Shown here: positions 1-28,879 of the stretch, piece after piece | Position numbering within the stretch: the stretch's first letter is position 1 | Layout: each line of letters opens with the position of its first letter | The notes under the pieces: generated by a model | What the model was told of the DNA's origin: nothing | Databases searched by the model: none | The model's input: only the letters and a program-made list of their open reading frames with translations | Origin: Escherichia phage Phi06_2987 S | Direction: 5' to 3' (one strand) | DNA: 28,879 nt | Sequence record: KM389287.1 | Program-made: the position numbers and the translations under genes

Positions 1-1
1 T

Positions 2-241
2 GTGACTAAATCAGAATTCCTCCAGAAGGTAGCGGTGCTGGCCGGTGAATGCCATAAGTTGGCCTGTGAGCTGGACATAGGCGATGAACGAATAGAGATG
101 TTCGAGATTTATGAAGTGCTTCGCCGAATCCAGCGGAGTGGTGCAGCCGGTGAAATGCTGGCTGCAACAAACCCTTTACTATCCCCTGGAATACCTGAGG
201 ACACTGAATGGGTAAATTTCCATAAAGAGGATCATGCCTGA
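2..241 (+). CDS. hypothetical phage early-region protein, possibly 5'-truncated by the window edge
   Basis: 79-aa ORF in the track, running from the window edge with GTG at position 2. Its TGA stop overlaps the ATG of the next small ORF (TGATG). No family recognised. Confidence 0.35.
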   Translation: MTKSEFLQKVAVLAGECHKLACELDIGDERIEMFEIYEVLRRIQRSGAAGEMLAATNPLLSPGIPEDTEWVNFHKEDHA

Positions 242-417
242 TGCCTAAGACAATCATCATAACCTTAGAAATTGATGTTCCGGAACACGCTACCGATAGC
301 GACATATCAGATTGGGTAGACGTCGAGTACGGGCAGTGTGGTGGACAAAAATTAGATAACCCCTGCCGTGGCGATGCCACCGAAGTAATAAACCATTCAT
401 GGAAATTTGAGAGCTAA
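241..417 (+). CDS. small hypothetical protein (58 aa)
   Basis: Hand-translated ORF not in the track (<60 aa): ATG 241 to TAA 415-417, MPKTIIITLEIDVPEHATDSD... It is stop/start coupled to the upstream ORF and ends 2 nt before the exonuclease ATG. Function unknown. Confidence 0.3.
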   Translation: MPKTIIITLEIDVPEHATDSDISDWVDVEYGQCGGQKLDNPCRGDATEVINHSWKFES

Positions 418-419
418 AG

Positions 420-992
420 ATGAACGACTTAATGATTGACCTCGAATCAATGGGGAAAAAGCCAAACGCGCCGATCGTCTCAGTTGGTGCTGTCTTTTTT
501 AACCCTCAAACAGGTGAACTAGGCCAAGAATTCTATACAGCCGTCTCGCTTGAAAGCTCAATGGATCAAGGCGCGGTACCGGATGGAGATACGATTCTTT
601 GGTGGCTAAAACAAAGCCCTGAAGCGCGCTCAGCTATCTGCGTTGATGATGCGATGCCTATCACTGATGCACTGTCGGAACTTAGCCATTTCATTCACCG
701 GCATGCATATAATCTCAAATACATGAAGGTCTGGGGTAACGGGGCCACCTTTGACAATGTGATTCTGCGCGGAGCTTACGAACGCGCCGGACGCATTTGC
801 CCGTGGGAATTTTGGAACGATCATGATGTACGCACGATTGTTACCCTCGGTCGCAGTGTTGGTTTCGATCCGAAGCGTGACATGCCATTCATTGGCGATG
901 TTCACAACGCCCTGGCTGATGCGCGCCATCAGGCAAAATATGTGTCAGCAATTTGGCAGAAAATTATCCCTGCCACCAGCACCAACGAGTAA
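420..992 (+). CDS. DnaQ-like 3'-5' exonuclease of the prophage-borne type
   Basis: 190-aa ORF. From memory it resembles the 3'-5' exonuclease domain proteins commonly found next to xis/int in enterobacterial prophages. It sits where lambdoid phages carry early recombination/nuclease genes. Family assignment is from recollection, not a search. Confidence 0.7.
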   Translation: MNDLMIDLESMGKKPNAPIVSVGAVFFNPQTGELGQEFYTAVSLESSMDQGAVPDGDTILWWLKQSPEARSAICVDDAMPITDALSELSHFIHRHAYNLKYMKVWGNGATFDNVILRGAYERAGRICPWEFWNDHDVRTIVTLGRSVGFDPKRDMPFIGDVHNALADARHQAKYVSAIWQKIIPATSTNE

Positions 993-1036
993 ACCACTCA
1001 GTCCGGGTGCAGCCGGGCTTTATGGAGAAGGAAACC

Positions 1037-1246
1037 ATGGCAAAGCTAATGAAAGCGAGTCTCTGGAGTAAGCGCGAATTTACCAAAGACTCCATTCCTG
1101 ACAACCGTACAATTAAACGTTGGGTCGAAAACGGATTACTCATGGGAAGGATTGTAGATGGTTCAGTTTTTGTCTATGAAACCGAAAAGTGGGGAGTTGA
1201 CTCAATTGTTAATCAGGCGGTACGTCAGTTAATAATTGAGGGTTGA
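1037..1246 (+). CDS. xis: excisionase (Xis-like)
   Basis: 69-aa product MAKLMKASLWSKREFTKDSIPDNRTIKRWVENGLL... lying immediately upstream of int. Start at 1037 chosen for the GGAGAAGGAA Shine-Dalgarno; the track's longer form from 953 overlaps the exonuclease. Size, position and basic N-terminus fit lambda-type excisionases. Confidence 0.7.
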   Translation: MAKLMKASLWSKREFTKDSIPDNRTIKRWVENGLLMGRIVDGSVFVYETEKWGVDSIVNQAVRQLIIEG

Positions 1247-1319
1247 CCATGGCAGCAAGGCCACGAAAAAAAGAATACCGCCACCTTCCTGATTATCTTT
1301 TTTTGATAAAGATCGTGGC

Positions 1320-2429
1320 GTGTATAAGTTCACGCTTATAACTGGGAAAAAGAAAACTCTCGGTTCGGATCGAGTAATGGCTATCGCCATCGCCCGAGAA
1401 TATAACCTGAGGATGCGCCCTGAAAATACACCATCGATAGATTCATTAATTCGGGAATCGGGAGGGCTGAATGGTGAAGCCCACCCGTTTTCTGAACATG
1501 TTGATCGCATTATGGAGAGAGCGATCAAAGATGAGCAGCCGTCTAAAAGCACACTTGACGATTGGAATAATGATGCCATCAGGGTTAAAGAATTTTTTAA
1601 TAACATACCCGCATGCGATATTGAGCTTGAGCACGTAAATGCCTACATACGAAATTACCATTCTGAATCGTCGGCCAATGTTCAGAACCGAAAAGTTAGC
1701 TTCCTGAAAAAGCTATTCTCTTATGCTGTTGATGAATCGCTAATGATGGATAACCCTGCAACACGGAAAAAAATGCGGCGTGTCGATAAAAAGGTCCGCC
1801 GGCGACTCACTTTGGAACAGTTCTTGGCCATACATGCAGCTGCTGAACCTTGGCTGAAGACTGCAATGGACCTTGCCATACAAACTACGCAAGCGCGCCT
1901 GGAAGTTTCCCGGATCCGGTACTCGATCAAGGAACCTCAAGAAGGGGTTTGCGGCTGTGTATGGTTCGATCAGGAGGAGGCTGGCATATTCGGAACGCTT
2001 TACATTCACCGGCAAAAAGTGCAGCACAAAGAGGCTTCACACGTCGCTATTCCGATCGGCAGGGCCCTGAAAGAGATCATCGACAACAGCAGAGACAATG
2101 TGGCCAGTCCTTATGTTGTTCACCGGCTTCTGGAAAAGAGAAGCAATCCGATAAGTAAGGAAGTTAACCACCCAACACAGGTGGCCCCTGATTATTTGAG
2201 CAGGGCATTTTCAGAGCTGCGGGACCGGATAGGTGTAGCGGCAGAATTACCTATCAAAGAAAGGCCAACTTTCCACGAAATTAGAGCGCTGGCGGCTCAT
2301 ATTTTCGAAAGACAAGGTATCGATCCGCAGGCAAGGATGGCCCATAGTGATGCAAAATCGACAAAAATTTATACCCAGAATCATGTTGAATGGGTTGAAG
2401 TACCACATGCAGAAATAAAAATGGCATAG
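1320..2429 (+). CDS. int: tyrosine integrase (lambda Int family); N-terminal arm-binding segment lies in another frame from ATG 1249
   Basis: 369-aa ORF from GTG 1320 with a tyrosine-recombinase C-terminal region. The ATG at 1249 encodes MAARPRKKEYRHLPDYLF, which matches the integrase N-terminal arm-binding consensus but hits a stop at 1339. The two frames join only if the T7 run at 1298-1304 were T8. Confidence 0.9.
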   Translation: MYKFTLITGKKKTLGSDRVMAIAIAREYNLRMRPENTPSIDSLIRESGGLNGEAHPFSEHVDRIMERAIKDEQPSKSTLDDWNNDAIRVKEFFNNIPACDIELEHVNAYIRNYHSESSANVQNRKVSFLKKLFSYAVDESLMMDNPATRKKMRRVDKKVRRRLTLEQFLAIHAAAEPWLKTAMDLAIQTTQARLEVSRIRYSIKEPQEGVCGCVWFDQEEAGIFGTLYIHRQKVQHKEASHVAIPIGRALKEIIDNSRDNVASPYVVHRLLEKRSNPISKEVNHPTQVAPDYLSRAFSELRDRIGVAAELPIKERPTFHEIRALAAHIFERQGIDPQARMAHSDAKSTKIYTQNHVEWVEVPHAEIKMA

Positions 2430-2430
2430 A

Positions 2431-2455
2431 AAAAGGCACCTGATGGTGCCTTGAA
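2431..2455 (+). terminator. hairpin just after the int stop (possible terminator)
   Basis: Perfect inverted repeat AAGGCACC-TGAT-GGTGCCTT straight after the int stop codon. There is no long T-run, so termination efficiency is uncertain. A related GGTGCC-containing motif recurs at about 2478-2495. Confidence 0.35.
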
Positions 2456-2551
2456 TAAAGTCTTGAATAAGACACCCGAAGGTGCCTTAAGTGGTTCTCT
2501 TAGCAACGAACTAAGAACGCCCACGCCTCATACCCATAATCATGAGCATCA

Positions 2552-2653
2552 AGGACTTTTGCGGATTTCCCACGTACCTTGCGGTAACGGCAGAAAACCC
2601 AACGGAACCCTTTTGGTGCCGCTTTCGAAGCGATAGATTTCAAACTCATTCAT
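2552..2653 (-). CDS. candidate small protein (33 aa) downstream of ImmA
   Basis: Hand-found ORF MNEFEIYRFESGTKRVPLGFLPLPQGTWEIRKSP preceded by a near-ideal Shine-Dalgarno (TAAGGAGGTG, 6 nt spacer, ATG). Too short for the track. Existence is unproven. Confidence 0.25.
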
Positions 2654-2807
2654 GTAACACCTCCTTACCAAGAGAGATTTTTCCCTTGAACATCTTCCCT
2701 GAAGGTGTTAGTTTCAGGCTGTCTATTGAAGCTGTTCACGGTGGTGACGCCTCTCGGATTCATCACCTTAAGACCCCTTGCATTGGTTGGCGCCAAGCAG
2801 GGGGTTT

Positions 2808-3329
2808 TTACATTTTGTCTAACTGATATCGTGCGGCCACTAATGATACTCCGCATGCCTCAGCTACATTTTCAGCACTCATACCTTTCAGAACATTGGC
2901 ATGAATAGCCGGTACTAATAGCTCACCACTGAAACATTTGGCTTGCCACTCACTACTCTCAAAAGGGCGGATTTTTACCCCTGGAGCAGAACGCGCGAAA
3001 GCAATGTTCCTGTGCATGAGAAGATGTCCCAGTTCATGTGCGGCAGTCATCCTGTCACGCCCTACCCCATTCAAAGCACCCTCGTAAATGTCTTCACGAA
3101 GAATCAATAAATGTTCCTGTGGGTAGGTGAGACCGTGCGTCTCCCCCATTTCCTTCATCCCACCGATATGGAGTTCAAAATCTGGGATCAACTGAGGCAA
3201 TGCGAACTCAATCACCTCCATAACAGGAAACATCAGACCTGTAATACCGAAGGTGCTCCGCAGAGATCTGACGATAGAACGTATTGATTCGCGGTTCTGC
3301 GGGGGTACACGATAATCTTGTCCGCTCAA
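2808..3329 (-). CDS. ImmA/IrrE-family zinc metallopeptidase
   Basis: 173-aa ORF with an HEXXH motif (AAHELGHLLMH). TTG start preceded by AGGAGG. It begins 8 nt after the XRE gene stop, so the pair is likely an operon. Confidence 0.8.
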   Translation of the reverse strand: MSGQDYRVPPQNRESIRSIVRSLRSTFGITGLMFPVMEVIEFALPQLIPDFELHIGGMKEMGETHGLTYPQEHLLILREDIYEGALNGVGRDRMTAAHELGHLLMHRNIAFARSAPGVKIRPFESSEWQAKCFSGELLVPAIHANVLKGMSAENVAEACGVSLVAARYQLDKM

Positions 3330-3337
3330 AATGCCTC

Positions 3338-3697
3338 CTACTGCTGTTTTCGATTCAAAATCTGTCGTAAATTCCGGAAGTCTTCTTCATTTAACTCATC
3401 AAAACTACGAGCGAACGCAATTGCGACTTCACGAGCATGGTCGTTCTTACCTGACAAGCTGATCTCTACTGATTGCTGAGAGTCACGAGCTGCACTGATA
3501 AGCTTTTCTTTTTGTTTTTCATCCGCATTCAGATAGCCAATGATGCTATCAAGCACGGGTTTAGTGACCGCCCTTTTACCAGTTTCGATTGCTGAAAGAT
3601 AAGACGAGGTCATACCCATAGCCTCAGCCATGCTTTTAAGCGTAAGCCCCAGGTCTATGCGCATTTTTCTTACTGTCTTACCAAACGGCGTTAACAT
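3338..3697 (-). CDS. XRE-family helix-turn-helix transcriptional regulator
   Basis: HTH signature LGLTLKSMAEAMGMTSSYLSAIETGKR. Start at 3697 (MLTPFGK...) chosen for a GGAG Shine-Dalgarno; the track ORF extends to 3745 without a ribosome-binding site. Confidence 0.8.
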   Translation of the reverse strand: MLTPFGKTVRKMRIDLGLTLKSMAEAMGMTSSYLSAIETGKRAVTKPVLDSIIGYLNADEKQKEKLISAARDSQQSVEISLSGKNDHAREVAIAFARSFDELNEEDFRNLRQILNRKQQ

Positions 3698-3769
3698 AGT
3701 TGTATCTCCAGTGTGTCCAAGACCCCCATTACTCTTGGGTCTCATTTTAAGTTAACACGCTCCCGACAG

Positions 3770-3819
3770 AAAATCAACAGAATTTTGTTGATTTCTTTCA
3801 TGTCGATTCGTTTACGAAT
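3770..3819. promoter_or_regulatory. palindromic operator candidates upstream of the XRE gene
   Basis: Perfect 7-2-7 palindrome GATTCGT-TT-ACGAATC at 3804-3819 and an imperfect inverted repeat AAATCAACAGAATTTTGTTGATTT at 3770-3793, both in the leader region of the XRE/ImmA operon. Confidence 0.3.
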
Positions 3820-3922
3820 CTTCAGTCTCGTGTTGATTGAAACGTAGGTTGTGTGAAGAAGTATGGGGAAAAACCAGCTGTAACCCATTGATGTGTATAG
3901 TGCGGATTTTGCAAAAAATGCA

Positions 3923-3938
3923 CTGTTTGCATATACAG
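3923..3938. promoter_or_regulatory. LexA (SOS) box candidate
   Basis: CTGTTTGCATATACAG fits CTGT-N8-ACAG with an AT-rich centre. It differs at one position from the box at 4731-4746. Confidence 0.5.
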
Positions 3939-3994
3939 TCAAATGTGTCGCAGCACCAGTATTTACAAGGGTTACAGCGGATTTATCGCAGTGA

Positions 3995-4040
3995 CATGGG
4001 GTGTCGGGGGTCGGAGGTTCAAATCCTCTCGTGCCGACCA
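3995..4040 (+). other. 3' portion (about 46 nt) of a tRNA-Pro gene; probable attP core
   Basis: CATGGGGTGTCGGGGGTCGGAGGTTCAAATCCTCTCGTGCCGACCA contains a T-arm (GGAGG-TTCAAAT-CCTCT), the acceptor 3' strand CGTGCCG, discriminator A and CCA. This matches my recollection of enterobacterial tRNA-Pro(UGG), including the Pro-specific G72 that implies a C1:G72 pair. No matching 5' acceptor strand or D-arm lies upstream, so it is a fragment. Confidence 0.7.
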
Positions 4041-4051
4041 AAAACACATTG

Positions 4052-5110: not shown

Positions 5111-5665
5111 TTAAGCCTGTCCCACCGGAAATTTTTTATAAAGCGTGCATACAGCGACATCATAAATTATTGCCACTTGTTTTCTATCCACGCCGTTTAA
5201 TATTAATCTCCCAGCTTGTGCCCATTGCTCGGGAGTTAATTTTGGACGTCTGCCACCTATTCGCCCTTTTTCCCGCGCCGCCGCTAATCCAGCCCGGGTG
5301 CGTTCGACGATTAACTCTCTTTCCATTTCCGCCAGCGCTGACATGATGTGAAATATAAAACGCCCCATTGGACTTGATGTATCAATGCTGTCCGTGAGGC
5401 TCTTAAAGTGAATGCCCCGCTGTCGGAGTTCGTCCACCAGCAGCACTAAATTTCGCATGCTTCGCCCGAGGCGATCTAGTTTCCACACCACCAGTGTATC
5501 GCCCGCATTCAGAGTCCGCAGAAGCTTTTTGAGCGCTGGCCGGTTCGCTACCGTCCCGCTCATTTTTTCTTCAAAAACCTGTTCACATCCTGCGCGTTCG
5601 AGAGCTTGGCGCTGGAGATCTGTATTTTGGTCATTTGTTGACACTCTGACATAGCCAATTTGCAT
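5111..5665 (-). CDS. serine recombinase, DNA invertase (Gin/Pin/Hin/Cin/Min family)
   Basis: MQIGYVRVSTNDQNTDLQRQAL... is the canonical invertase N-terminus with the catalytic serine context; the C-terminal HTH region resembles Gin as I recall it. ATG at 5665 preferred over the upstream GTG at 5674. Confidence 0.9.
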   Translation of the reverse strand: MQIGYVRVSTNDQNTDLQRQALERAGCEQVFEEKMSGTVANRPALKKLLRTLNAGDTLVVWKLDRLGRSMRNLVLLVDELRQRGIHFKSLTDSIDTSSPMGRFIFHIMSALAEMERELIVERTRAGLAAAREKGRIGGRRPKLTPEQWAQAGRLILNGVDRKQVAIIYDVAVCTLYKKFPVGQA

Positions 5666-5699
5666 ATTTTTCACCCAATAAATTCTGCAAAAAAATCAG

Positions 5700-6533
5700 G
5701 TGAAGTTATCGGCCAGGCCGGCCCGTGGCAATCTATTAAACGTCGGTTTGGGAAGCAGCGCTACAAGGAACGCGTACAGCTCATCTGGCGATATACTTTC
5801 TGTAGGGGATTTGGGCTTGGGTGTTGTTGCCCCTGCCGAACAAAACCGTTACGAAAACGCGAGATTAAATGGCTTTTATAACATTGCCTCTGGTTCCGGC
5901 AACGGCCTGCCAACTAATGATGCGGGCTACGGTGTCTGGATGAACCGAAGCTCAAATTACGGCACCTTTGAGTGCTGGCTAAGTGGGCCTGTCGGGAGAA
6001 AAATGTTTAGCCAGGTTATAGGCGGAACAGCAGGTAAATGGTATGAATTTTACCATACAGCTAATACGACAAAAGCCAGTGACGGCACTATCAAAGCTGC
6101 CTCCCCCGTGGCACGAATTGTAACGAGCAAGGATGAGTGCCAGCGTGCTGATATAGCGGAGGATGGTTTTACCTGGTGCGGCTGCGGTGCGGCGAATGCC
6201 GAGGCTGAGGGCATTACTATTTCACGGCTTGATGTCGGCGTTTATGTTCTCACAGGTTCGGCAGGCCTGGCGTCTGAGGGATGGCAGTTACTTCCCCCAA
6301 TGGACCCTGGCGGCATGGGGGAACTGGGTGTAGTTGAGGCAGAGCAAACCGATAGCGGTGGGCTGACTATCCGTCTGTATAAACGCAAATACATCCTGAG
6401 CGATGAAGGTGAAATCATCAAAACCAAAGGTGAACCGATGGACGTACCGGCGAACAGCTGGATCGATGTTCGCTTGGATATGCCCGCAGATTCACTGTTT
6501 AACCAGCGGATGAGCCAGAAGCCGGAGATTTAG
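5700..6533 (+). CDS. alternative tail fiber C-terminal cassette C (likely start-less in this orientation)
   Basis: From site 1 the frame reads ...NVGLGSSATRNAY..., parallel to ...NLGLGSSATKDVG... at the crossover point in the expressed tail fiber. Its C-terminus (VPANSWIDVRLDMPADSLFNQ) and an internal block (TANTTKASDGTIKAASPV) are homologous to cassette A. The ATG at 5700 is probably fortuitous. Confidence 0.65.
   Translation: MKLSARPARGNLLNVGLGSSATRNAYSSSGDILSVGDLGLGVVAPAEQNRYENARLNGFYNIASGSGNGLPTNDAGYGVWMNRSSNYGTFECWLSGPVGRKMFSQVIGGTAGKWYEFYHTANTTKASDGTIKAASPVARIVTSKDECQRADIAEDGFTWCGCGAANAEAEGITISRLDVGVYVLTGSAGLASEGWQLLPPMDPGGMGELGVVEAEQTDSGGLTIRLYKRKYILSDEGEIIKTKGEPMDVPANSWIDVRLDMPADSLFNQRMSQKPEI
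5731..5756. other. invertase crossover site 1 (gix-like), inverted relative to sites 2 and 3
   Basis: ATCTATTAAACG-TC-GGTTTGGGAAGC. Its reverse complement shares cTTCC(c/t)AAACC-GA with sites 2 and 3. It lies 78 bp upstream of the invertase start, at the 5' end of cassette C. Confidence 0.65.
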
Positions 6534-7128
6534 CGTCGCCCTCTAATGCGCTGACGCGGATTGCCAGCTCTTTGATTGCCGCCAGCGCATCGAGCACCAG
6601 AGGATTGAGGTCTAGGGTCATTTTCCCCGACTCCTCAGCCGAGTGAACATATTGCGGATCTATCTTTTCCAGTTCCTGAGCAACAACACCTCGGCGTATC
6701 GTTTTCTCTTCATCAGCAAGGTAGTAGAAGGTCTTAAAATCCATTGCCACGATGTTGGCCAGAGACACTTCTAAATTAAGTTCTCCAGTAACCTTCTTGA
6801 AATTTATGTCCGATGTACCTGCAGACTGCAGCTGCGCCCACGGCACTGATGATTTTGGTGTTTGAGGGTCAGTGGTTGTTAGAAAACGGCTGAATACCGC
6901 ACTACCGTAAGTAATCCACAGCTGCGCAATTCGCTGCTCGGTGTAGGAACTCTGAAACCCACAGCCATTCGTAGGAGCCCACAGAGTATTGCCATCAGCA
7001 TCACTGATGAAGGATGAACTGGCATCTGTGGGCTTATTTTGGAGAACAGCACCAACCCCAAAAGCTCCCACCTGCATAACATTCCCTGCCGCAGTTCCGA
7101 CATCCTTTGTCGCACTACTTCCTAAACC
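6499..7128 (-). CDS. alternative tail fiber C-terminal cassette B with a peptidase S74-like intramolecular chaperone domain; no start codon of its own
   Basis: The frame is open from crossover site 2 (…KVGLGSSATKDVGTAAGNVMQVGAFGVGA…), with an in-frame TGA immediately upstream and no ATG before the shared motif. The C-terminal part (FKTFYYLADEEKTIRRGVVAQELEKIDPQYVH...LVLDALAAIKELAIRVSALEG) resembles the auto-cleaving chaperone domain of phage fibers and spikes. The track ORF is 6499..7077. Confidence 0.6.
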   Translation of the reverse strand, partial: GLGSSATKDVGTAAGNVMQVGAFGVGAVLQNKPTDASSSFISDADGNTLWAPTNGCGFQSSYTEQRIAQLWITYGSAVFSRFLTTTDPQTPKSSVPWAQLQSAGTSDINFKKVTGELNLEVSLANIVAMDFKTFYYLADEEKTIRRGVVAQELEKIDPQYVHSAEESGKMTLDLNPLVLDALAAIKELAIRVSALEGDAKSPASGSSAG

Positions 7129-7142
7129 GACCTTTATTCACC
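7119..7142. other. invertase crossover site 2 (gix-like)
   Basis: TTCCTAAACC-GA-CCTTTATTCACC. The conserved half-site and about 25 nt of adjacent coding sequence are nearly identical to site 3 (2 mismatches over about 37 nt). It sits 13 nt past the stop of the expressed tail fiber. Confidence 0.6.
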
Positions 7143-8489
7143 TTAATCGGCCGTCTCGGCCAGCTCTGCAGCTCTGAGTTTTTGGTTGTATAAAGAATCA
7201 ACAGGCATTTCGACACGGACGGACACAAACTGATCGGAGGGAATATCTACCGGATCGCCATCGTTGATACCCGGCAGCTCGTTCCTGGCGAATGCTGGTG
7301 CTTCAGGATGTGTGCGGTGATAGGTTTTAACCAGCACAGAGCCATCCGCGTTAACCTCATAATCCAACCAGACAAGCGCCTGCTTGTTGCGGTCGGTGGG
7401 GATGTCAAAACCGCCATCAATACCACCCCAGGCAGCGTCTGAATTTAGCCCCTCGCATCCTTCAACCAGATATTCACCAGTGCCCAGGCGGGTTACAGTG
7501 CAGCCCTCAGACTCATCGTTTGTGTGGCACTCGCCATTCATAAAAATTTTCACAACTGGTGATGCAGCTTTAAGCGTGCCATCACTGGCCCTGGTCGTAT
7601 TAGCTGTGCCGTAGAGTGTGTTAAATGTCGAGGTGCTACTTGATCCGGAGGTATTTCTCGCTAACACCCCAACAACGCCTGAATCATAGGCAACACTCAT
7701 AATCGCGTGTGTGTCTTCAGAAGCAAAATATAATGATGCTGAATATGCCCTTTGAGAGTTAACAGATTTGTTGTTGCGAAAGACTCGAGTACCTTTGTCT
7801 AAGAGGTTTGCCCATACATCAGCAACGGTATCTGCATTAAAGGATAGCCCTTTCCCCCCGAACCCAAACGCACCTACTTCCATGATGTTTCCGACGGATG
7901 TTCCGACGTCCTTTGTCGCGCTACTTCCTAAACCGAGGTTTGTGCGAGCGTCTGATGCAGTTTTCGAACCTGTTCCGCCCAGAGATACAGGCACTACACC
8001 ATCTGTAAACCCCAGGTTGCTTCTGGCGTCAGCGGCATTCGTTGCCCCGGTCCCGCCGTCCGAAACTCCAATCGCCCCATTGCTCCCTTTCTGGACCAGT
8101 TTGCCGATCGCCGGAATGGTTACACGAGCGCCGTTGATGGTGACGGTGATGTTCTGGTTTGCTGAGGTAGTGGCGAACGTCTCCCACGCGCCAATATTCT
8201 CGTCATATTCTTTGATGAGCTGCGACATTGCCTGGGCCAGTCCGTCGACGGAGATAATGTCTGACACCAGAATGGCGTATTTCTGGCCGCTCAGCGCCGG
8301 AGAAGCTGCAGGCGTAATCGTCATTGACGTGGCGCTGTTCACGGATGAAATCTGGAACAGCTGCACCGGGTTAGACATCACGATAATCGTCTGGCCAGCG
8401 CGAACCTGGCTGGCCGGTGCAGTCCAGTTTGTACCGGATCCGGTTGCGGTATTTCCGTTAATAGAGATAGTTCCTGTGTTATAAAGCAT
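7143..8489 (-). CDS. side tail fiber protein (constant N-terminal part plus currently fused C-terminal cassette A)
   Basis: Start at 8489 (MLYNTGTISINGNTATGSGTNW) with a GGAG ribosome-binding site. Contains phage tail fiber repeat-like motifs (…ARSNLGF…SLGGTGSKTASDARTNLGLGSSATKDVGT…). Crossover site 3 lies inside the gene. The track ORF extends to 8534. Confidence 0.85.
   Translation of the reverse strand: MLYNTGTISINGNTATGSGTNWTAPASQVRAGQTIIVMSNPVQLFQISSVNSATSMTITPAASPALSGQKYAILVSDIISVDGLAQAMSQLIKEYDENIGAWETFATTSANQNITVTINGARVTIPAIGKLVQKGSNGAIGVSDGGTGATNAADARSNLGFTDGVVPVSLGGTGSKTASDARTNLGLGSSATKDVGTSVGNIMEVGAFGFGGKGLSFNADTVADVWANLLDKGTRVFRNNKSVNSQRAYSASLYFASEDTHAIMSVAYDSGVVGVLARNTSGSSSTSTFNTLYGTANTTRASDGTLKAASPVVKIFMNGECHTNDESEGCTVTRLGTGEYLVEGCEGLNSDAAWGGIDGGFDIPTDRNKQALVWLDYEVNADGSVLVKTYHRTHPEAPAFARNELPGINDGDPVDIPSDQFVSVRVEMPVDSLYNQKLRAAELAETAD
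7925..7948. other. invertase crossover site 3 (gix-like), inside the tail fiber gene
   Basis: TTCCTAAACC-GA-GGTTTGTGCGAG. This resembles the Mu gix site (recalled as TTCCTGTAAACC-GA-GGTTTTGGATAA). The central dinucleotide falls in codon positions 2-3 of the Leu in ...TNLGLG.... Confidence 0.65.
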
Positions 8490-8500
8490 ATTTTCTCCAG

Positions 8501-8527
8501 GCAATAAAAAACCCCGCCGAGGCGAGG
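8501..8527 (-). terminator. rho-independent terminator between the lipoprotein gene and the tail fiber gene
   Basis: On the minus strand: CCTCGCC-TC-GGCGGGG followed by TTTTTT. Confidence 0.45.
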
Positions 8528-8547
8528 TTTGCATTGAAAGTCATGAG

Positions 8548-15889: not shown

Positions 15890-18406
15890 TTACCTGCGAT
15901 TGTTCGCATTCCAGATAAGCCCACCGGGCTGGATTGCCCTGGCGATACCATCGTTGACAGATTTGTTAATCACCTGCTGATACGCCTTACCCAGCCTGTC
16001 TCCGTCATTTTGCTGCTGTGCGCCACCGGAGGCATTCTCGACGGTCACAGGCGCGTACACGCTCACCCCGAAAGGTGCTGCAGCGGGACCTGTGCCACTG
16101 CCCCCGACAAGCCCTCCTGTGGCGTACCCTTTCATCATCCGGTAAAGGTTGCCGACGCCGATCCGACTGGTAGCCTCTTTGGTGAAAACAAATTCGCCAC
16201 GGTGAACGACACCTGCGGGTTCATATTTCCCACCCGAACCGGTGAATCCCCCGCTGGCAAACCCCAGCGCCGTGGAGGCTGAATCTACCAGTCCGGTCAT
16301 TGCCTGCTTCAGCAGAATTTGTGTCAGCATGGAGAGCGTGGAGCGGGTAAAGTCAGCCCAGTCAGCCTTTCCGCGTGTCAGCATGTCTGCCATATTCTGC
16401 CCGATGCCATCAAACGTACTGGTGGCAACCGACTTCATCTGGCCATAAGCATCTGAAGCGGAATCAACATAATCTGCCCATGCGGATTTGGCCCCGGATT
16501 GCCAGTCGTCCCGCAGCTTATCCTGCTCGGCGTAATACGCCTGCAGCGCCTGCAGCTCATTCTGATAACCAGCGTCGTTCTCCGAACCGCCACCATTTTT
16601 CCAGCCCTGAAGAAGCTGGGCCTCCTCATTGCGGCGTTGTGCTGCACGACTGCTCATACCAGCACTTTCCGCAAGGGCTCGGGTTTTCTCGCCGATCTGC
16701 GTGACGTATTTTTGGGACGTATCCTGCAGGCGGTTAAGCCGCTCCTGCGCCACTATCTGATCGCCAAGCTTCGCGTTCAGCTCTGCACGGGAAAGCACCT
16801 CGCTTTTACTGGCCAGCAGGGATTTTTCCTCGGCAGAAAGCGTCCGGGTCTTCGCGGCTTCTTCCAGAACCGTAAACCGGGACTGTTGACGCCACAGCTC
16901 CTGACGCTGCTGGCTGATGGTGTCATTGATCCCCTTATGCTCCTGCAGGGTGCGCAGCTGTGCTTCCAGCTCCATCGTCTGGGCGCTGGCCGTATCGGTT
17001 GCACGGGTACCGGCAGGTGTCCTGACTGCAGGGGTTTTCTTCGGTTTTTTGAGGGTGTCTTCGTACTCTTTTTTCGCGGCGGCCAGGTTGATGTTGTAGT
17101 CAGCCTGGAGGATCCGCCCCTCTTTCAGAGCCTTATTGAGCTCGCTCTGCCTGGCCGTGTATTTCTCAAGGGCAGTTTGGGTTTTGGCATAGTTGGCCTG
17201 AGCCTGCGCGGCATATTTCTGACGATCGGACTCTGCGACCGCTTCACGGGAAGCATTCTCTTCGTTCGCTTTGGCAATACCAGCCTGCTGCTGCGCCATA
17301 TCCAGTGCCAGTCTGGCCGTTTCACGATCATTCCAGAACCGGGCGCGGGCCTCATCATTCACATAATGATCGCCTTTACGCAGATTCCAGATTTCATCAG
17401 CCTTTTTAAACGCGGCCTGGGCTTTTGCCACCATCTCCTGGGCGGTGTCAGGTCTGCCAATATCAAGTGCAGCATCCCACATCGACTTGAAGGCACGCTT
17501 CAGGGAATCCGCTGAAGACTCAATCGTCCCCATATTGTCGCGGATGGCCTTGGTCTGATCGTTGAATCCGGCAGTAGCAGCCTGATTAGCCGCCTGCAGT
17601 GCGCCAGCCTCATCACCGGCACGCTGCAGCTGTGCCACATGGGCAATCTGTTCGGCCGTAACGTTGTGGAACTGCTGAGCCATCGCGATCAGGCCTGATG
17701 TAGGGTCAGTAGTGAGCTTGCCGTATGCGGCTGCGACTTTTTCCACCGGCACGCCGGAGGCATCAGTAAATCGCGCCACCGCCTGGCTCATTTCATCAAA
17801 GCGCGAACTCGCGCCCACCCCCGCGTTGATAAGCTCGCTCAGGGCTTCGCTGGTCTGATTGAACGTCAGCCCCGCTGCCTGGCCGTTTCGTGCCAGCGCC
17901 AACATACGATCGGCAGTCAATCCGGCCGTGTTCCCCGACAGTACCAGCGTTTTGTTGAAGTCAGATAGTGTGGATGAGCCCTGGTACCAGGCATAGAACA
18001 GCGCACCCGTTGCGGCGGACAGCGCACCGATGCCGACCATCAACGGTGAGATCGTACCCAGTAAGGCCCTGAATGTTGGTATTATCCCGCCAAAGGAGTC
18101 CTTAACCTGACCGCCCTGCTGAAGCAGAATCAGCCATGGGTTCTGCCCGCCCGCTAGCTGCGTAGCTATATCGGTAAACTGCGCCGGAAGCATACGCATT
18201 GCTGCGTTATACTGGCCTATTGAAATACCCGCCTTGCGCGCGGCGTTCTCCTGGCGGCTAAAGGACTGCTGGATCCGTAGCGCTTCGTCGTTCGCCGCGC
18301 TGCCAGTCTGCTTTAATTCTTTTTTGACGTAGTTAAGCTGCTCGTTAAATTTCGTCGAGTTAACGTCAAGGTTAACGACCAGATCACCCACTGCCGTCTG
18401 GGCCAT
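15890..18406 (-). CDS. H: tail tape measure protein
   Basis: 838 aa, Ala/Gln-rich and predicted helical, located between G/T and M as in lambda gpH. Confidence 0.95.
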   Translation of the reverse strand: MAQTAVGDLVVNLDVNSTKFNEQLNYVKKELKQTGSAANDEALRIQQSFSRQENAARKAGISIGQYNAAMRMLPAQFTDIATQLAGGQNPWLILLQQGGQVKDSFGGIIPTFRALLGTISPLMVGIGALSAATGALFYAWYQGSSTLSDFNKTLVLSGNTAGLTADRMLALARNGQAAGLTFNQTSEALSELINAGVGASSRFDEMSQAVARFTDASGVPVEKVAAAYGKLTTDPTSGLIAMAQQFHNVTAEQIAHVAQLQRAGDEAGALQAANQAATAGFNDQTKAIRDNMGTIESSADSLKRAFKSMWDAALDIGRPDTAQEMVAKAQAAFKKADEIWNLRKGDHYVNDEARARFWNDRETARLALDMAQQQAGIAKANEENASREAVAESDRQKYAAQAQANYAKTQTALEKYTARQSELNKALKEGRILQADYNINLAAAKKEYEDTLKKPKKTPAVRTPAGTRATDTASAQTMELEAQLRTLQEHKGINDTISQQRQELWRQQSRFTVLEEAAKTRTLSAEEKSLLASKSEVLSRAELNAKLGDQIVAQERLNRLQDTSQKYVTQIGEKTRALAESAGMSSRAAQRRNEEAQLLQGWKNGGGSENDAGYQNELQALQAYYAEQDKLRDDWQSGAKSAWADYVDSASDAYGQMKSVATSTFDGIGQNMADMLTRGKADWADFTRSTLSMLTQILLKQAMTGLVDSASTALGFASGGFTGSGGKYEPAGVVHRGEFVFTKEATSRIGVGNLYRMMKGYATGGLVGGSGTGPAAAPFGVSVYAPVTVENASGGAQQQNDGDRLGKAYQQVINKSVNDGIARAIQPGGLIWNANNRR

Positions 18407-18704
18407 AGCGCACGCCTCCTGAAATACCTGCAGCCTTCGCCATCAGCGTATCGTCATCCGGCTCATCAACGTCGATGCTTTCCGATACAGGGGAAAGGAT
18501 GCTGAAACTGTCCGGTGTTAATTCCGGATCAGCAAAAAACAGGGTTGAGATGGTGTAGAGCAAACCGGAGAAATGAGCATCCAGCTGCGCATCATGAAAG
18601 TAATTGTCCTGGTAGAAGATTTTCCAGTCGCCGTATTCCGTTGAGGACATGCCAGCAAGCATGGCACGCCAGTCCGGGCGACCGAACTCACGCGCCAGTT
18701 TCAT
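18384..18704 (-). CDS. T: tail assembly chaperone, T portion (expressed as a G-T fusion by -1 frameshift)
   Basis: ORF in the -1 frame relative to G, overlapping the G 3' end and the H start. A GGAAAAG slippery-like heptamer lies at about 18731-18737 near the end of G. This is the conserved lambda G/GT arrangement. Confidence 0.7.
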   Translation of the reverse strand: MKLAREFGRPDWRAMLAGMSSTEYGDWKIFYQDNYFHDAQLDAHFSGLLYTISTLFFADPELTPDSFSILSPVSESIDVDEPDDDTLMAKAAGISGGVRYGPDGSG

Positions 18705-18712
18705 GGCAAACT

Positions 18713-19135
18713 TCAGCTCACTGGCGAGGGCTTTTCCGCAGTAACAGGTTCAGCGGGTTCATTACGTTCTTCACCGGGCTCAGCCTGGTCATCAGTGACC
18801 GGCGCAATCATCCCGGACAGGAGTTTCACCTTATATTCGGCTTCGGCAACAAGTTCGGTCGGCCATGTCTGCATGACCTCATCCTGAATCTGCTCCACTT
18901 CCGCCGCCGCGTTTTCTCCCTGCGATCCTTTAAGCGCGTGGCCATGCCAGAGTGACATTGCCACCAGATATGCTCCACTCTTCACGGTAAGGGTAATGGC
19001 AGCCTGAAAATCACCAGCTTCAACCGCCTCAAGTTGTTTCAGGTATTCGAGGTATTCAATACGCTGCAGCGCCGACAGCTGGAACAATGTGACGCTGCTG
19101 CCGTTACTTTCAAGCAGCTCGCTCTTTAGAAACAT
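18713..19135 (-). CDS. G: tail assembly chaperone G
   Basis: 140 aa with an acidic C-terminus, between V and T/H. Confidence 0.85.
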   Translation of the reverse strand: MFLKSELLESNGSSVTLFQLSALQRIEYLEYLKQLEAVEAGDFQAAITLTVKSGAYLVAMSLWHGHALKGSQGENAAAEVEQIQDEVMQTWPTELVAEAEYKVKLLSGMIAPVTDDQAEPGEERNEPAEPVTAEKPSPVS

Positions 19136-28698: not shown

Positions 28699-28879
28699 GG
28701 CTTACTCCTGGCAAAAAACAGAGAAAGGAAACAATCAACGGTAAACTTCCGTTTTCCTTGCTCAGCATTTCCTTTCTGGAGAGAGGACGTTTTTAACAAA
28801 AACAATGAGTAAACAAGAAGAAGAACGGAAATGGCATAAACCAGAAAATTTTCATAAATAGCGAGAATCTGCGCGGACG
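28699..28879 (-). other. cos region (cosB-like terminase binding region; cosN at or just beyond the window end)
   Basis: The minus-strand sequence upstream of Nu1 (…TCGCTATTTATGAAAATTTTCTGGTTTATGCCATTTCCGTTCTTCTTC…) is closely similar to the lambda cosN-proximal/cosB region as I recall it. By lambda spacing, cosN would sit at the last few bases of the window or just past it. Confidence 0.6.

Follow-up and report, generated by a model that had tools for sequence, protein, structure and literature searches.

A one-base contraction of a T tract disrupts the lambda-type integrase gene in the record of an Escherichia phage

Introduction

The integrase (Int) of phage lambda is built of three parts: an arm DNA-binding domain (PF09003), a SAM-like core-binding domain and a tyrosine recombinase catalytic domain. 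Lambda Int that lacks its arm-binding part binds core sites and cleaves DNA, but cannot assemble the attP intasome. In the lambda genome the genes are arranged in the order exo, a small ORF, int and attP, and the attB site lies between gal and bio.

Productive transcriptional slippage usually needs homopolymer runs of about 9 or more. At sites of −1 frameshifting such as dnaX (A_AAA_AAG), IS911/IS3 and lambda G-T, a heptamer of the form X_XXY_YYZ lies in the upstream frame and the downstream ORF is in the −1 frame. All heptamers have been tested in E. coli by Sharma et al. (2014; PMC4066793). Among the U-rich motifs the efficient ones have U or C as their last base, and U_UUG gives only 1.8-3.6 times background even in the presence of a pseudoknot; when no stimulator is present, the ceiling is about 10 times a background of 0.055% (PMC4066793). 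Leaky homopolymer alleles termed 'savior indels' are also known, for example in the G7 run of herpesvirus thymidine kinase (PMC5009743).

We have analyzed the integrase gene in a stretch of 28,879 nucleotides from Escherichia phage Phi06_2987 S (KM389287.1), the whole of which is termed the window. The phage resembles lambda in the order exo, small ORF, int and attP, in its lambda-like cos site and in a lambda/N15-like structural module, and its Int has the same three parts. However, the protein is only distantly related to lambda Int in sequence, the phage uses the proL tRNA-Pro gene as its integration site, and int and attP are separated by an ImmA/XRE gene pair. Moreover, the first 18 codons of int are out of frame with the remainder.

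Results and Discussion

The int gene is written in two reading frames

Direct reading and translation of the window place the start of int at an ATG at 1249-1251 on the plus strand. The ORF beginning here is 30 codons in length (ATG GCA GCA AGG CCA CGA AAA AAA GAA TAC CGC CAC CTT CCT GAT TAT CTT TTT TTG ATA AAG ... TTA TAA), occupying 1249-1341 with a TAA stop at 1339-1341. Its translation is MAARPRKKEYRHLPDYLFLIKIVACISSRL, followed by the stop. Alignment with homologues divides it into codons 1-18 of authentic Int, encoding MAARPRKKEYRHLPDYLF, and 12 out-of-frame codons that lead to the TAA. The frames part at a run of seven T's at 1298-1304. The −1 frame is open from 1293, after a TGA at 1290-1292, and reads through FFDKDRGVYKFTLITGKKK to a stop at 2427-2429. 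Translation, Pfam matches and alignment with lambda Int place the remainder of int, codons 20-393 and the stop, in this frame at 1305-2429 on the plus strand; encoded here are what is left of the arm-binding domain, the SAM-like core-binding domain and the catalytic domain of the tyrosine recombinase. The earliest start codon in the −1 frame is GTG 1320 (codon 25), which gives a 369-aa ORF, and a further candidate internal start is ATG 1377 (codon 44). Thus the window as written does not encode the arm domain joined to the rest of Int in one frame. The addition of one T yields exactly the sequence present in every relative found.

These coordinates for the ATG, the T7 run, the TAA and the GTG are those given in the original prediction, and all were borne out by re-reading and translation. 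It had also been proposed that the arm-binding N-terminus of Int is out of frame at T7, and indeed the upstream 18 residues are identical to residues 1-18 of the Int of the E. coli ECONIH4 prophage.

A second homopolymer, an A7 run at 1266-1272 (CGA AAA AAA GAA, codons 6-9), precedes the T run by 26 bases and falls inside the first 10 codons of int. This run is also A7 in four aligned relatives.

Immediately upstream of int, at 1037-1246 on the plus strand, a 69-aa ORF occupies the xis position, with its TGA stop 2 nt before the int ATG. It has no match in Pfam and is labelled 'hypothetical protein' in relatives; it is its position that suggests a putative role as excisionase.

Identity of the integrase and its translation start

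The protein obtained on restoring the missing T aligns with the structures of lambda integrase (1Z1B, 1Z1G and 5J0N) from residue 4 to residue 373-382, with E = 2e-14. PF09003, the lambda arm DNA-binding domain, matches the T8 version of the protein (ECONIH4) at residues 1-59 with 28.1 bits (cut-off 22). In the 369-aa ORF of the window Pfam gives no match to PF09003, so that the arm domain is detected only in the repaired protein, and gives matches to PF13102 (SAM-like core-binding; 23.9 bits, cut-off 22.3) and PF00589 (Phage_integrase, catalytic; 27.3 bits, cut-off 27.1). Candidates for the catalytic residues (R, K, H-x-x-R, H and Y) are present in the motifs TTQARLE (R217), HRQK (K257), HEIR (H343 and R346), AHSD (H366) and KIY (Y375), which are invariant in 15 homologues. 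The ORF can be aligned with the catalytic domain of lambda Int; HEIR aligns with lambda HELR, and the register of the HMMER alignment is off by one at the tyrosine. The gene is a member of the lambda-type integrases by descent, disrupted in this record.

A search of 5.8 billion proteins gave 559 relatives at E <= 1e-20. The best 120 of the 559 are all 391-396 aa in length, covering 99-100% of the full-length query, and none of these 120 starts at the internal GTG. The conservation of the N-terminus was examined in an alignment of 15 homologues extending down to 76% identity, in which residues M1, A2, A3, R4, P5, R6, E9, R11, H12, L13, P14, L17, F19 and D20 are invariant; these include 12 of the first 18. 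Residue 18 varies between F, I, V, L and Y, and therefore the T run is not conserved in the family. It exists only because this lineage writes L17-F18-F19 as CTT TTT TTT. Taken together, the lengths of the homologues and their invariant N-terminal residues indicate that int truly begins with the upstream 18 codons, whose resemblance to the Int N-terminus is not due to chance.

It had been envisaged that functional homologues might begin at the internal GTG, making the upstream ORF irrelevant, and the long ORF does have GTG 1320 as its first start codon. The homologues do not behave in this way, as their lengths and coverage demonstrate. Residues 1-24 are among the most conserved of the protein, the PF09003 match is lost in the 369-aa form and lambda Int aligns from residue 4. 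There is also no Shine-Dalgarno (SD) sequence before GTG 1320 on reading 900-2700, whereas GAGGG precedes ATG 1249. A natural start at the GTG is thus extremely unlikely, and is effectively refuted by the homologue lengths, the N-terminal conservation and the match to the arm domain.

All relatives have eight T's

The xis-int region was found by megablast in 12 of 5,426 complete E. coli genomes, with 97.5-99.9% identity. Over the aligned stretch all 12 exceed the window by one base. For eight of them this difference in length is what was observed; for the other four, direct alignment shows it to be T8 in the genome against T7 in the window. The region is also present in the phages Flotzy (PP925827) and Eeyore (PP925821), with T8 and an intact gene. 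The records of the E. coli relatives and of both phages annotate one integrase of 393-395 aa that begins at the same ATG. The intact orthologues of the ECONIH4 prophage (WP_001515619.1), Flotzy and Eeyore share the flanking genes of the window int and 97.5-99.9% of its DNA sequence over xis-int, but have T8 where the window has T7, and hence one uninterrupted protein of 393-395 aa.

Pattern scans of IMG/VR, JGI metagenomes and GTDB genomes, in which T6-T10 were allowed, found T8 only, in 30 IMG/VR, 10 metagenome and one GTDB contigs; as they required exact flanks of 19 and 18 nt, the scans cover close relatives. There was no other carrier of T7 among these 41 contigs. Over E. coli prophages, Flotzy, Eeyore and the viral and metagenome contigs, the tract is T8 in 48 of the 48 related loci counted, not all of them independent since some contigs are duplicates (e.g., L011 and L037), and forms codons 17-19 (CTT TTT TTT, encoding L F F). 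T7 is found in the window alone. Metagenome contig L043 shows no substitution relative to window positions 1-1800, the one-T gap being the sole difference. The ECONIH4 prophage, compared with window 1-4044, differs at the T-run base and at one C/T at 2947.

The comparison with intact homologues that was called for at the outset has returned T8 and an uninterrupted int in all relatives found, and the expectation that one extra T would create a continuous full-length Int is matched by an intact gene from the same ATG in each of the 48 loci. The T7 of the window is a one-base contraction of the T8 of its lineage. Since every related sequence found has eight T's, this is an ordinary lesion or a sequencing miscall, and requires no new mechanism.

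A look-up of the exact truncated 369-aa product found no database record. A 350-aa product is on record solely in two contigs in which int is disrupted by an insertion sequence (IS). In L048 (an ENA metagenome scaffold, about 300-2970) the gene is cut by an ISL3-family element at the equivalent of window 1345-1352, and in L049 (a Logan contig, 1-31) it is cut by an IS end at the equivalent of about 1329. These are independent natural inactivations of the same integrase near its 5′ end.

The window is in the excised arrangement

An att site is present adjacent to int. Its core, the 3′ part of the tRNA-Pro gene (proL), lies at 4000-4044 on the plus strand, as defined by identity with the two prophage junctions of lysogens, its left boundary being approximate. 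Identity with the int-side junction ends at 4044 and that with the tRNA-side junction begins at about 4000, and from 4000 onward the window matches the opposite end of the prophage, starting inside tRNA-Pro beside yejM. With ARAGORN no complete tRNA gene is detected here; the att site has the 3′ fragment alone, as expected for attP. The order int, ImmA, XRE, attP, DinI, invertase and tail fibres in the window is that of the excised phage. Lysogens carry the two halves separated by about 45 kb, with yejM-proL on one side and yejO on the other.

At its right end the window breaks off within a lambda-type cos site, after 6 of the 12 bases of the cohesive end. At this position (window 28830-28879) a related prophage reads GGGCGGCGACCT followed by CGCAGATTCTCGC. 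Of the six terminal bases of the window (CGTCCG on the minus strand), two do not match CGACCT, which suggests that the source contig ends at the physical end of the virion DNA with an imperfect terminal consensus. Given the attP arrangement and the right end inside cos, the window is excised or packaged phage DNA.

Origin of the missing T

In the account that we propose, int is an ordinary gene, encoding a lambda-type tyrosine recombinase of a lambdoid E. coli phage that integrates into proL, and translated from ATG 1249 directly after the small upstream ORF. In its lineage codons 17-19 form the T8 of CTT TTT TTT, and the T7 of the window splits the first 18 codons from the remaining gene. As to how the T was lost, we infer with a slight lean, and with confidence that is about even, a consensus miscall in the source record, i.e., an under-called homopolymer. 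In that case the real phage would carry a normal Int. With eight T's this tract would be the one homopolymer of the 28.9-kb window to exceed 7 bases, and it is for this reason the likeliest place for such a miscall. T7 is a singleton among relatives that can otherwise be identical over 1,800 bases (L043) or differ at only one other position in 4,044 (ECONIH4), and the mismatches of the last 6 bases to the canonical cohesive end may reflect a consensus of imperfect quality. Excised, packaged DNA would also be harder to obtain from a phage with a dead Int, but this argument from attP and cos is weak because a phage that is propagated lytically does not need Int. Set against a miscall, comparison of about 22 kb with relatives of 99.6-99.9% identity shows no further frameshifting indel, the other eight 7-base runs checked agree with the relatives, and all structural genes are intact.

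The alternative is a genuine, very recent deletion from T8 to T7 by replication slippage, which is a serious possibility, although somewhat short of an even one. The longest homopolymer of the region is also the most mutable, the remaining window shows no homopolymer errors, and Int is dispensable for lytic growth. The IS insertions in L048 and L049, which destroyed the same int independently, show that its loss occurs in nature. However, a deletion would be a singleton among about 50 relatives, with no accompanying decay visible and in a window of excised, packaged configuration. Furthermore, no contig on record has the exact 369-aa product, the 350-aa product being confined to the IS-disrupted contigs.

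Slippage at the T tract

The deletion creates a heptamer T_TTT_TTG, seen by direct reading at 1299-1305 on the plus strand, that has the X_XXY_YYZ form in the 0 frame set by ATG 1249 and places the rest of int in the −1 frame. It is therefore formally like dnaX, IS911/IS3 and lambda G-T. Full-length Int might then be made only by a −1 frameshift at the heptamer or by transcriptional slippage, throttling the level of Int, or the tract might act as a phase-variable switch. As a stimulator one would expect either a structure about 5-9 nt downstream or an SD-like sequence upstream. None was found at T_TTT_TTG: there is no SD-like sequence upstream, and solely a 6-bp hairpin downstream, which starts 11 nt after the heptamer and whose stability (−8.4 kcal/mol) is not distinguishable from that of shuffled sequence (z = −1.5). 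The motif is of a low-efficiency type in E. coli, with a poor A-site codon, UUG (PMC4066793).

Unlike the known sites, moreover, the heptamer is not conserved. The two-frame arrangement occurs in 0 of the 48 related loci, the best 120 of the 559 proteins are all single-frame and of full length, and the variation of residue 18 marks the run as a by-product of codon choice rather than a conserved element. For slippage by RNA polymerase the run is of 7 bases; it is 8 in the relatives, where it is in frame, and is lost where residue 18 is I, V, L or Y. No polymorphism of tract length of the kind shown by phase-variable homopolymers was seen among close relatives, which are monomorphic for T8 (48 against the one T7). 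Programmed −1 frameshifting is ruled out by the absent stimulator, the lack of conservation and the poor motif in E. coli, and regulated slippage in any form is very improbable. The contraction is non-programmed, and not a designed recoding site. Of the three explanations originally offered, slippage-dependent expression is thus disfavored as a designed feature, on the grounds of stimulator, conservation and motif, while sequencing error and genuine mutation both stand.

A different matter is whether a real T7 allele might be leaky. It is like the 'savior indel' alleles (the G7 run of herpesvirus thymidine kinase, and transcriptional slippage on long A/T runs) in having an indel in a run of 7-8 bases near the start of the gene, where slippage of polymerase or ribosome could give a trace of full-length product (PMC5009743). 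A −1 slip of the ribosome at T_TTT_TTG would rejoin the int frame to give LFLDK instead of LFFDK, changing the invariant F19, whereas insertion of one U by RNA polymerase (U8) gives the wild-type protein. Yet the window allele shows no sign of selection or rescue, and efficient slippage in E. coli would call for a longer run. The T7 allele is expected to yield full-length Int in trace amounts at most. We give only a slender chance to an attenuated int of this kind, in which rare U8 transcripts or −1 slips on U_UUU_UUG provide occasional integration and excision. If true, lysogeny and excision would be strongly damped in such a phage variant, which could return to T8 in one step.

Consequences for the phage and its annotation

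If T7 is real, translation from ATG 1249 would yield a peptide of 30 residues. An Int made by reinitiation would be without residues 1-24 (from GTG 1320) or 1-43 (from ATG 1377) of the 59-residue arm domain and, going by lambda Int, could still bind core sites and cleave DNA but could not build the attP intasome. Such a phage would be predicted to be int-defective, with failure of integration and excision apart from traces due to slippage, and should be unable to lysogenise stably or to excise. This would be relevant to users of the phage as a temperate one, or to those who want a non-lysogenising derivative. In annotation, the ORFs at 1249-1341 and 1320-2429 are best treated as one frameshifted int gene, whether through pseudogene formation or through a sequencing error; they should not be listed as a short peptide and a novel integrase with a short N-terminus. 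The kind of gene and the kind of lesion are already known, and the T7 finding touches no open question on recombination or recoding.

Other loci in the window

Between int and attP, at 2808-3745 on the minus strand, lies a pair of genes whose products are an ImmA/IrrE metallopeptidase of 173 aa and an XRE-type HTH protein of 135 aa. Among the relatives, ECONIH4 and SZQ1 carry this pair and ECONIH5, MSB1_9D, Flotzy and Eeyore lack it; in these last four, similarity to the window ends at about 2416. At the site corresponding to window 2947, ECONIH4 carries a premature stop.

A DNA invertase gene (5111-5674, minus strand) adjoins tail-fibre ORFs of opposite orientation in the region 5111-8534, where imperfect inverted repeats of 70 nt, 74% complementary, are found at 6057-6126 and 7538-7607. 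The region is probably an invertible tail-fibre host-range segment of the Gin/Cin/Pin kind.

The tail assembly chaperone pair G/T is located at 18384-19135 on the minus strand. The G/T junction of this phage lacks GGGAAAG, the heptamer of lambda G-T. The G gene ends GCG GAA AAG CCC TCG CCA GTG AGC TGA, and because it reads GCG GAA AAG the expected site of the −1 shift would be G_GAA_AAG, with an A_AAG tetramer, and not the G_GGA_AAG of lambda. In a relative, PGAP marks T as 'partial'.
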